Below, piece after piece: positions 1 to 953 of a DNA stretch of 3,513 nt (its first letter is position 1; each line of letters starts with the position of its first letter). The DNA comes from Escherichia coli. GTDB lineage: Bacteria > Pseudomonadota > Gammaproteobacteria > Enterobacterales > Enterobacteriaceae. The notes under the pieces were generated by a model, which was given only the letters and a program-made list of their open reading frames with translations, did not search any database and was not told the origin of the DNA. The position numbers and the translations under genes were made by a program. The DNA is taken from NCBI RefSeq assembly GCF_003334335.1, contig NZ_QOWQ01000083.1; one strand, written 5' to 3'.

Positions 1-203
1 CTTGCTAAATCTTCCGTCGTGACATCAATGTGACCACGTAGTGACACGCCGTGACATGTCGTGACATTTCGTGACGCGCTCACCAGAAGGTGGATATACA
101 CTGCCATCACTGTTGCGATTGGCTGTCCTGATACCCTGGCAATCGTTCGCCACTTGGGGTCATTTGGCATGTCATGCCACAATCTGAGCCAGGCATTAGC
201 CAT
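1..203 (-). CDS. Partial CDS (5' end only, runs off the window edge): putative phage replication-initiator / replisome-organizer-like protein
   Basis: Hand translation of the - strand from ATG at 203..201 gives MANAWLRLWHDMPNDPKWRTIARVSGQPIATVMAVYIHLLVSASRNVTTCHGVSLRGHIDVTTEDLA... with no stop down to position 1. It is absent from the ORF track only because no stop lies in the window. AGAGGTG Shine-Dalgarno lies a few nt upstream of the ATG. The W-x-R-L...D-P-K...LL-x-A N-terminal pattern recalls phage replisome-organizer N-domains (from memory). It sits directly downstream of the cro/cII-like genes, where lambdoid phages place replication genes. Confidence 0.45.
   Translation of the reverse strand, partial: MANAWLRLWHDMPNDPKWRTIARVSGQPIATVMAVYIHLLVSASRNVTTCHGVSLRGHIDVTTEDLA
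19..76. repeat. Iteron-like array: six direct repeats of GTGAC(A/C/G) phased at 10-11 bp
   Basis: GTGACA at 19, GTGACC at 30, GTGACA at 41, 51 and 61, GTGACG at 71. Spacings are 11, 11, 10, 10, 10 bp, about one helical turn. The array lies inside the 5' coding part of the leftward partial ORF. Confidence 0.85.
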
Positions 204-271
204 ACTCACCTCTTCTGATACCGAACTTTACCCACGAACTTCCGGAAGAAATCCGGTATAAATATTGTTGG

Positions 272-697
272 TCAATGCACAACAACAGCATTACCAGGCT
301 GACCACCACTGTTAGTCAGGGTGCCCCAGGCGATCGCTACAGCGACAAAATCATCCACATCTTTCACCAGCCGATCCCGTCGTTCGACGATCTCCCGGTA
401 ATATTCAGAACTGTGACTGCGCATACGGGCCACCAGCAAAGGCGGCATCGCCTTTTCGATCGCCGGTAACAGAGCCTGCATTTTTTCAACAGCATCAGGG
501 GTGTCTTTATCCAGCCAACGGAAAATTTTCTGGGTATTACGGGCCAGGGCTTCCGGATGGCTGTCGTCATACAGTTCCGGGAACGTCATTCCCAGCTCGA
601 AATACGCTTTGGTAATTTTCGCAGCCGGTACTTTTTCGCCGTCCGGATGCGCCCAGACATTCATCGCCATGCGGATGTGTTCATGCTTGATTTTCAT
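272..697 (-). CDS. ydaT: YdaT-family protein (CII-like prophage regulator; historically annotated 'putative toxin YdaT')
   Basis: 141-aa ORF starting MKIKHEHI..., which matches my recollection of the YdaT N-terminus of Rac-like prophages. Its start overlaps the upstream cro-like gene by 17 bp (681..697), implying translational coupling, in the cro-then-cII order of lambdoid phages. Confidence 0.8.
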   Translation of the reverse strand: MKIKHEHIRMAMNVWAHPDGEKVPAAKITKAYFELGMTFPELYDDSHPEALARNTQKIFRWLDKDTPDAVEKMQALLPAIEKAMPPLLVARMRSHSSEYYREIVERRDRLVKDVDDFVAVAIAWGTLTNSGGQPGNAVVVH

Positions 698-953
698 GAA
701 TCAACTCCGGTGCATTTGATGTGTTAACCTTGAATCCAACAGGTAAACCATCGGTTGGGTTAGGATAAATATCAGGGCGAATTTCATGCGGGGTAACTTC
801 CCACTTCATTAGCTGACATAACGGAATTACCTGCTTTGGGGGAACGTCAAAGCTAAACCATTGCCAAACAGTCTGTTGAGCGACCCCCATATAACGACCT
901 ATTTCAGCTTGAGTGTATTTCTGCCTAATTTTTTCGCGAGTGCTATCTAGCAT
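681..953 (-). CDS. ydaS: Cro-like HTH DNA-binding protein (YdaS-like)
   Basis: 90-aa ORF with a helix-turn-helix signature (QAEIGRYMGVAQQTVWQW). GAGGAG Shine-Dalgarno lies upstream of ATG 953..951. It is divergent from the repressor gene at 1063 across a ~110-bp regulatory region and is followed by the overlapping ydaT-like gene. Confidence 0.7.
   Translation of the reverse strand: MLDSTREKIRQKYTQAEIGRYMGVAQQTVWQWFSFDVPPKQVIPLCQLMKWEVTPHEIRPDIYPNPTDGLPVGFKVNTSNAPELIHENQA

Follow-up and report, generated by a model that had tools for sequence, protein, structure and literature searches.

In phage lambda and the Stx phages, the origin of replication consists of repeats inside the initiator gene, in the part that links the N-terminal domain of the protein to its loader-binding C-terminal domain. 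In lambda, this gene follows the cro and cII equivalents in a rightward-type early operon and precedes the gene for a P-type helicase loader, and the N-domain with the origin and the C-domain with the loader form two mosaic modules. The lambda iterons are inverted repeats of ~19 bp that bind O dimers, and the AT-rich region has almost all of its purines on one strand (PMC5043065). Lambda carries four iterons and the Stx phages carry six, with 13 extra residues in O (PMC7466680). In the Bacillus phage SPP1, the origin oriL is made up of direct repeats together with an unwinding element that is AT-rich, within gene 38, which encodes the origin-binding replisome organizer G38P and is followed by the helicase loader gene (PMC6316719). 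SPP1 also has a distant second origin, oriR. Iteron plasmids (P1, F, RK2 and R6K) have arrays of direct repeats for a replicon-specific initiator beside an AT-rich region. Plasmid iterons are typically 17-22 bp in length with a spacing of ~22 bp and lie outside the rep gene. They bind monomers of the initiator (PMC5043065).

The window analyzed here, a stretch of 3513 nt, corresponds to the immunity and early region of a lambdoid prophage in E. coli (Table 1). In prophage CP-933P, ydaS and ydaT replace cro and cII and are followed by the replication gene, and the gene order of the window matches this arrangement (PMC8630535). The organizer gene of the leftward operon leaves the window at its left end, and transcription from the promoter of the Cro-like gene would cross an array of repeats, designated cluster 1, in its 5′ part. 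On the + strand, this array reads as six co-oriented copies of GTGAC (19-23, 30-34, 41-45, 51-55, 61-65 and 71-75), with start-to-start spacings of 11, 11, 10, 10 and 10 and a mean of 10.4 bp. The whole window contains 11 GTGAC pentamers against 5.4 expected, six of which fall inside 57 nt. Tandem Repeats Finder identified a period-10 array at 41-75, and a repeat search of the window identified families of 10-nt-spaced repeats at 35-76. When chains of any 5-mer with a spacing of 9-12 nt were counted, the longest chain in the window had six members; in 2000 dinucleotide-preserving shuffles, the longest chain was two in 1877 and three in 123, and never more than three. These counts and shuffles confirm the report, in an earlier note on this DNA, of six GTGAC repeats phased at 10-11 bp. 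The unit on the coding strand is GTCAC, with an extended consensus of (T)GTCACGA(C). A palindrome, TGGCATGACATGCCA, at 165-179 in the first codons of the organizer gene was also considered as a site and was rejected as a by-product of the W-H-D-M-P codons; it is not kept in the Aeromonas homolog.

Table 1 Features of the window (positions are those of the whole 3513-nt stretch)
Feature	Position	Strand	Remarks
5′ part (67 codons) of the O-like replisome-organizer / replication-initiator gene	1..203	-	ATG at 203-201; exits the left end
Iteron cluster 1, six direct repeats with a unit of 10-11 bp	17..76	-	gene nt 129-185
Iteron 6, GTCACGA	17..23	-	codon phase 0, peptide V-T
Iteron 5, GTCACAT	28..34	-	codon phase 1, peptide G-H
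Iteron 4, GTCACTA	39..45	-	codon phase 2, peptide V-S-L; within the 21-bp stretch absent in four-copy relatives
Iteron 3, GTCACGG	49..55	-	codon phase 1, peptide C-H; within the 21-bp stretch absent in four-copy relatives
Iteron 2, GTCACGA	59..65	-	codon phase 0, peptide V-T
Iteron 1, GTCACGA	69..75	-	first iteron to be transcribed; codon phase 2, peptide S-R
Putative Shine-Dalgarno-like GAGG	209..212	-	5 nt upstream of the organizer ATG; read from the sequence
ydaT (CII-equivalent) gene	272..697	-	upstream neighbor in the leftward early operon; YdaT-family in close relatives
Cro-like / YdaS-like regulator	681..953	-	first gene of the leftward operon
DicA-like HTH regulator	1063-1464
RelB/PaaA2-like antitoxin	1492-1683
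RelE/ParE toxin	1683-1970

The complete organizer gene was read from relatives of the prophage. E. coli FORC_069 is 100% identical to window 1-272 and carries the gene as a CDS at 3172-4203 on the minus strand (1032 nt, 343 aa), annotated as 'DnaT-like ssDNA-binding domain-containing protein' and followed by a gene for 'replication protein P', while a 93.8% identical relative (L001) has the same gene layout with an organizer gene of 1038 nt. The full protein in relatives is 343-356 aa long and is annotated as replisome organizer or replication protein O. The organizer proteins match PHROG 'replication initiation protein' families with E values of 1e-91 to 1e-257, the Pfam DnaT DNA-binding domain PF17948 is found at aa 201-267, and the downstream gene encodes either a P-like helicase loader (phrog_109, 1e-54) or a DnaC-like loader. 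The full gene of the relatives, the PHROG and Pfam matches, and the operon context together indicate that the array sits in the 5′ part of an O-equivalent gene, and the annotations, the DnaT domain and the neighboring loader bear out the suggestion that the full-length reading frame encodes a replication protein. The place of the organizer gene, after the cro and cII equivalents and before a loader gene, is like that of its counterpart in lambda.

In L001 and FORC_069, the motif recurs five times at gene nt 410-455, with one copy degenerate in FORC_069. This second array, cluster 2, lies 207-253 bp past the left end of the window, outside it, at a distance of 260-280 bp from cluster 1; both cluster 2 and the AT-rich tract beside it are known from relatives, one of which is identical to window 1-272. 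In both relatives, cluster 2 is followed directly by ACAGATAAAGATACAGATACAGAATTAAAC, where GC content reaches its minimum (0.35) in the scan of FORC_069 around the gene. Cluster 2 has five copies in E. coli, four in Pseudomonas and three in Aeromonas, followed by GATAAAGATA-type sequence. When 105 loci were aligned on the end of cluster 2, the next 40 nt had a GC content of 0.38-0.44, compared to ~0.6 in the flanks, and were 74-77% purine on the coding strand, an asymmetry that is shared with the AT-rich tract of the lambda origin (PMC5043065). AT-richness beside cluster 1 is mild (GC 0.43-0.50), and there is no purine skew. An adjacent AT-rich region, which the earlier note had proposed to look for, was found beside cluster 2 in the relatives, and not as a purine-skewed tract at the array in the window.

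One isolated copy of the motif in inverted orientation, which reads GTGAC on the coding strand and encodes D-V-T-E, is located ~33 nt past cluster 1, at gene nt 214 in L001, which is ~11 nt left of window position 1, and at gene nt 193 in L002, L004 and L005. Homologs from E. coli, Pseudomonas and Aeromonas all retain this copy, which in Aeromonas is present twice, 10 bp apart. Other E. coli prophages share the N-terminal 150 residues of the organizer, differ in the C-terminal half and continue with a DnaC-like ATPase; RefSeq names the protein of these variants 'phage replisome organizer'. Comparison of L001 with L002 places the mosaic junction between P-type and DnaC-type modules after gene nt ~470, just past cluster 2 and a run of GATAAA/GATACA hexamers, which itself varies in length (DKDTDTE, DKDTDKDTD and so on). 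The position of the junction just after cluster 2 indicates that the N-domain and the origin form one module and the C-domain and the loader another, the same division as in lambda.

Two further scans covered 160 diverse viral loci with 38-80% identity to the Ralstonia-phage or spring-water-phage members of the family, and 109 of these loci were distinct and contained both protein anchors, DPKW and WxxRQPKRE. With a phased array defined as at least three copies, cluster 2 was present in the linker, 60-140 nt past the second anchor, in 101 of the 109 loci, and cluster 1 was present in the N-domain, ~80-100 nt past the first anchor, in 33. Array density was 3.88/kb in the linker and 1.29/kb in the N-domain, compared to 0.092/kb in 239 kb of flanking sequence. 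The motif differs by lineage (GTCACG, GTGACG, GCAACG, GTAACG, CGAACG, GGAACG or GAAACG), often with an extension of C(C/A)A, and both arrays share a 5-mer in 29 of the 32 loci that carry both. In the complete genomes of phages Evi and pAEv1818, ~40 kb each, the two arrays are the sole clusters of GTCAC/GTGAC and the longest phased 5-mer chains. GTCACG is common to the P-type and DnaC-type variants of E. coli and to Pseudomonas phages with a primase-helicase and a different repressor; across the loci compared, the motif travels with the N-domain, whichever C-domain, loader or immunity genes accompany it. That motif type and N-domain lineage are associated is partly a matter of physical linkage, since the sites lie inside the gene, and is not by itself proof of recognition. 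In one lineage (L172), cluster 1 (1401-1431, GTGAC on the coding strand) is inverted with respect to cluster 2 (1593-1635, GTCAC).

Cluster 2 resembles the lambda and Stx origins in lying inside the initiator gene, in the part that joins the N-domain to the C-domain. Unlike those of lambda, the units of the organizer family are direct repeats of 10-11 bp with a core of 6-9 nt, have no dyad symmetry and occur once per helical turn, and there is a second array inside the coding region of the N-domain. The organizer family is also like SPP1 oriL in that the proposed origin lies in the organizer gene with the loader gene next to it (PMC6316719). It differs from SPP1 in host range and iteron sequence, and no second, distant iteron site of the oriR type was found in the two complete phage genomes, Evi and pAEv1818, which have no second GTCAC cluster elsewhere. 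The layout of direct repeats beside an AT-rich region is also that of the iteron plasmids, from which the organizer repeats differ in unit length, spacing and position within the gene, and no homology to plasmid Rep proteins was detected in PHROG and Pfam profile searches.

An AlphaFold model based on 38 sequences had a mean pLDDT of 79.6, with values above 90 for most of aa 11-100, and places helices at 16-25, 29-45, 63-70 and 74-84 followed by a hairpin, in a winged-helix-like layout. In this model, cluster 1 encodes the loop/hairpin at aa 46-62, between two confident helices, where the indels of the alignment fall, and cluster 2 codes for the part where a long helix (117-150) ends and a disordered stretch begins. 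Foldseek against the PDB returned weak matches, mostly to winged-helix regulators (best E 0.18), and a profile search of PDB sequences with the N-domain returned no match. Pfam gave no significant match to the N-domain and none to the lambda O family, and lambda-type iterons were likewise rejected, as no 19-bp inverted repeats are present. The Pfam family Phage_rep_org_N (PF09681, SPP1 G38P type) matched one of 38 members at E = 0.03 and none at ≤0.001, and PHROG 'replisome organizer' and 'DnaD-like' profiles matched the N-domain weakly, at 1e-9 to 2e-4, the 'replisome organizer' matches including phrog_4880 (4e-6) and phrog_5968 (2e-4). The link suggested by these profiles between the N-domain and the SPP1-type organizer N-domain is a weak one.

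Taken together, the sequence comparisons make it likely that the six repeats are iterons, that is, candidate sites for the phage's own replication initiator located inside its gene. We infer that the N-domain binds DNA, that the initiator binds the repeats and that replication starts there. This was the main proposal of the earlier note, origin-type iterons within an O-like replication gene as in lambda, and it is supported by the nature of the protein and by the conservation of the repeats at the DNA level described below. The absence of dyad symmetry in the repeats makes it more likely that monomers bind them than dimers, as in lambda O, in keeping with the monomer binding of plasmid iterons (PMC5043065). 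The initiator has three parts, in which a charged linker joins a putative DNA-binding domain at the N terminus (~aa 1-105, winged-helix-like) to a C-terminal domain, DnaT-like in this case, that would pair with the lambda-P-like helicase loader encoded downstream. Upon derepression of the PR-like promoter, the initiator would be made, and monomers or small oligomers would bind cluster 2, one per helical turn on a single face of the DNA, with cluster 1, where present, bound in the same way. The resulting nucleoprotein complex, possibly looped between the arrays, would destabilize the adjoining purine-skewed AT-rich tract, and the C-terminal domain would then recruit the P-like loader together with the DnaB of the host. 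Within the window, the array is probably an accessory upstream set and the linker array, cluster 2, the core origin, because cluster 1 is absent in ~70% of lineages, has no purine-skewed tract and is inverted in one lineage. As an accessory array, cluster 1 might strengthen or tune assembly in the ~30% of lineages that have it. Given its absence elsewhere and the lack of a purine-skewed AT-rich tract beside it, cluster 1 is not a general requirement for an origin to function, and what it does is the least certain part of the scheme. No description of this origin was found in the searchable literature, which leaves most subscription journals outside it, so that an earlier description is possible, nor did that literature contain binding, footprint, origin-plasmid or marker-frequency data for the initiator family.

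It is also possible, though considerably less likely, that the initiator binds these iterons but that cluster 1 serves mainly as a control element and not in initiation, either by titrating the initiator, by handcuffing cluster 2 or a sister copy, or by blocking transcription of its own gene. Auxiliary iteron sets with a control function are found in plasmids such as P1, F and RK2. The location of cluster 1 within the transcribed 5′ part of the initiator gene would suit such a role, as would its dispensability in ~70% of lineages and the lack of an adjoining purine-skewed AT-rich tract, and its inversion relative to cluster 2 in one lineage points to a separate array and not a continuous filament. 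The present data do not separate control from assembly, however, and the Stx phages need their extra, weakly bound iterons for replication and are not limited by them (PMC7466680). A more specific form of this idea, which we put forward tentatively, is a bipartite origin in which the upstream array, by looping onto the core array or handcuffing it, would serve as a dosage-sensing brake or booster of initiation. As a joint proposal, and with no greater confidence, very short iterons would be placed one per helical turn in two parts of the initiator reading frame, a double unit of 10 + 11 = 21 bp (seven codons) might let the arrays grow and shrink in frame, and the upstream array could conceivably block transcription of the initiator gene as well. 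If true, this would add a layer of control that has not been described in lambdoid phages.

Given that the array lies 68 nt downstream of the ydaT stop codon and that YdaT, the CII equivalent, is a tetrameric DNA-binding protein (PMC9986795), the repeats might instead be a binding array for YdaT, an alternative raised in the earlier note, or for another regulator of the immunity region. The footprinted high-affinity operator of YdaT, OM of prophage CP-933P, is an inverted repeat, TTGATT-N6-AATCAA, unlike the GTGAC direct repeats (PMC9986795). An exact copy of this operator, TTGATTTTCATGAATCAA, is present at window 687-704, at the end of ydaS and the start of ydaT, as the sole match in the window, and the search gave no match at 17-76. 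The same GTCACG arrays are also found in Pseudomonas phages with a different repressor and Cro, and arrays occupy the same gene positions in loci with unrelated upstream genes. We therefore reject the YdaT binding array and consider any such role of the repeats very unlikely.

Several other elements were observed in the immunity region. The 68-nt spacer between ydaT and the organizer gene contains an imperfect inverted repeat, 218-228 / 249-259, and within window 218-259 a hairpin-forming CCGGA-AGAAA-TCCGG. Two 39-nt palindromic elements with perfect arms of 15-16 nt, ACAAT(A/T)AAAAACTGT..ACAGTTTTT(T/A)ATTGT, are located at 988-1026 and 2024-2062, one in the divergent intergenic region between the genes for the Cro-like protein and the DicA/PaaR2-like repressor, and the other after the toxin gene, overlapping a promoter-like TTGACA-18-TAGATT at 2038-2067. 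These are probably the OR- and OL-type operators of the repressor. The three-gene unit at 1063-1970 is arranged like paaR2-paaA2-parE2 and ends with a terminator-like site, a hairpin followed by T8, at 1987-2013.

Returning to the iterons, we considered whether the repeats could be the by-product of a repetitive peptide that the protein needs, with selection acting on the amino acids only. The peptide encoded at the array is SASRNVTTCHGVSLRGHIDVTT, and SRNVT recurs in the peptides from both clusters. The codon phase differs among the six pentamers, however (2, 0, 1, 2, 1 and 0), and they encode different amino acids (Table 1), which indicates that the repeat belongs to the DNA and not to the peptide; the 'V-T/S-rich repetitive peptide' of the earlier note is right only loosely. 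When the 67-aa peptide was held fixed and its codons were redrawn from local usage in 20,000 trials, 95% of the synonymous recodings contained 0-2 copies of GTCAC, 10 contained five and none contained six. In Pseudomonas phage P7869 and Aeromonas phage pAEv1818, whose homologs have amino-acid identities of 59% and 67%, GTCAC occurs at the identical gene positions 129, 139, 149 and 160. At codons for conserved amino acids, third positions inside the pentamers are identical in 6 of 6 cases for each pair of E. coli, Pseudomonas and Aeromonas, against 32/67, 26/68 and 33/73 (38-48%) outside the pentamers for the three host pairs. Among 80 close relatives taken from IMG/VR, a 1-nt displacement of one cluster 2 iteron replaces RVTH by ICHD while GTCAC stays intact. 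In addition, the loop encoded by cluster 1 tolerates indels, and the linker encoded by cluster 2 is modeled with low confidence. The codon phases, the recoding test, the third-position conservation and the 1-nt shift all point to selection acting on the DNA itself, and on the first three we reject the peptide repeat, which we regard as highly improbable. That the repeats are conserved as DNA, and not only as protein, had been named as a point on which the earlier reading depended. The locus thus has repeats inside a replication-initiator CDS, with at least three copies of one motif, above chance and with maintenance at the DNA level, as expected of an origin within an initiator gene.

Copy number was counted in the same 80 close relatives, one of which, without a recognizable start codon, was left uncounted. 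The copies in cluster 1 and cluster 2 were 6/5 in 48 loci, 6/4 in 16, 4/5 in 10, 5/3 in two, and 6/6, 4/4 and 6/0 in one locus each. The repeat number therefore does vary between related prophages, a question raised along with the first report of the array. The difference between six and four copies in cluster 1 is 21 bp, or two units, which corresponds to seven codons (TCHGVSL); this resembles the difference between four iterons in lambda and six in the Stx phages, in which iteron number likewise varies and adds residues to the protein (PMC7466680). Changes in copy number that stay in frame occur as these 21-bp double units. In two of the relatives (L039 and L080), gain or loss of a 10-bp iteron in cluster 2 shifts the frame and truncates the organizer gene, which is the mutational cost of an origin written into a reading frame.

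Slippage-like steps of this kind, including the 10-bp changes that frameshift the gene, could be taken to mean that the repeats are a neutral, slippage-prone tandem repeat, or else that a host factor or some other phage machine uses them, as at a terminase pac site. Both readings are highly improbable. The motif differs by lineage while it keeps a fixed position in the initiator gene, and the arrays stay with the N-domain even where the hosts and the virion and packaging modules differ. A neutral repeat would neither persist in sequence between proteins of 59-67% identity nor show concerted change at two sites 260-280 bp apart.

Of 5426 complete E. coli genomes, 2184 contain DNA similar to window 1-272, and phages of Pseudomonas, Aeromonas, Ralstonia and many uncultured hosts carry the N-domain of the initiator, so this is a common replication module whose origin seems never to have been mapped. 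The comparative pattern of an iteron array followed by a purine-skewed AT-rich tract amounts to a prediction of that origin and aids the annotation of origins in prophages. It also leads us to expect that co-resident prophages with GTCACG iterons in common show replication incompatibility or cross-activation, and explains some initiator pseudogenes, because gain or loss of a 10-bp iteron frameshifts the gene. With about seven natural specificity variants of one motif (G-N-N-A-C-G), the family could be used to study how the specificity of an initiator for its iterons evolves when the site lies inside the gene of its own binder.
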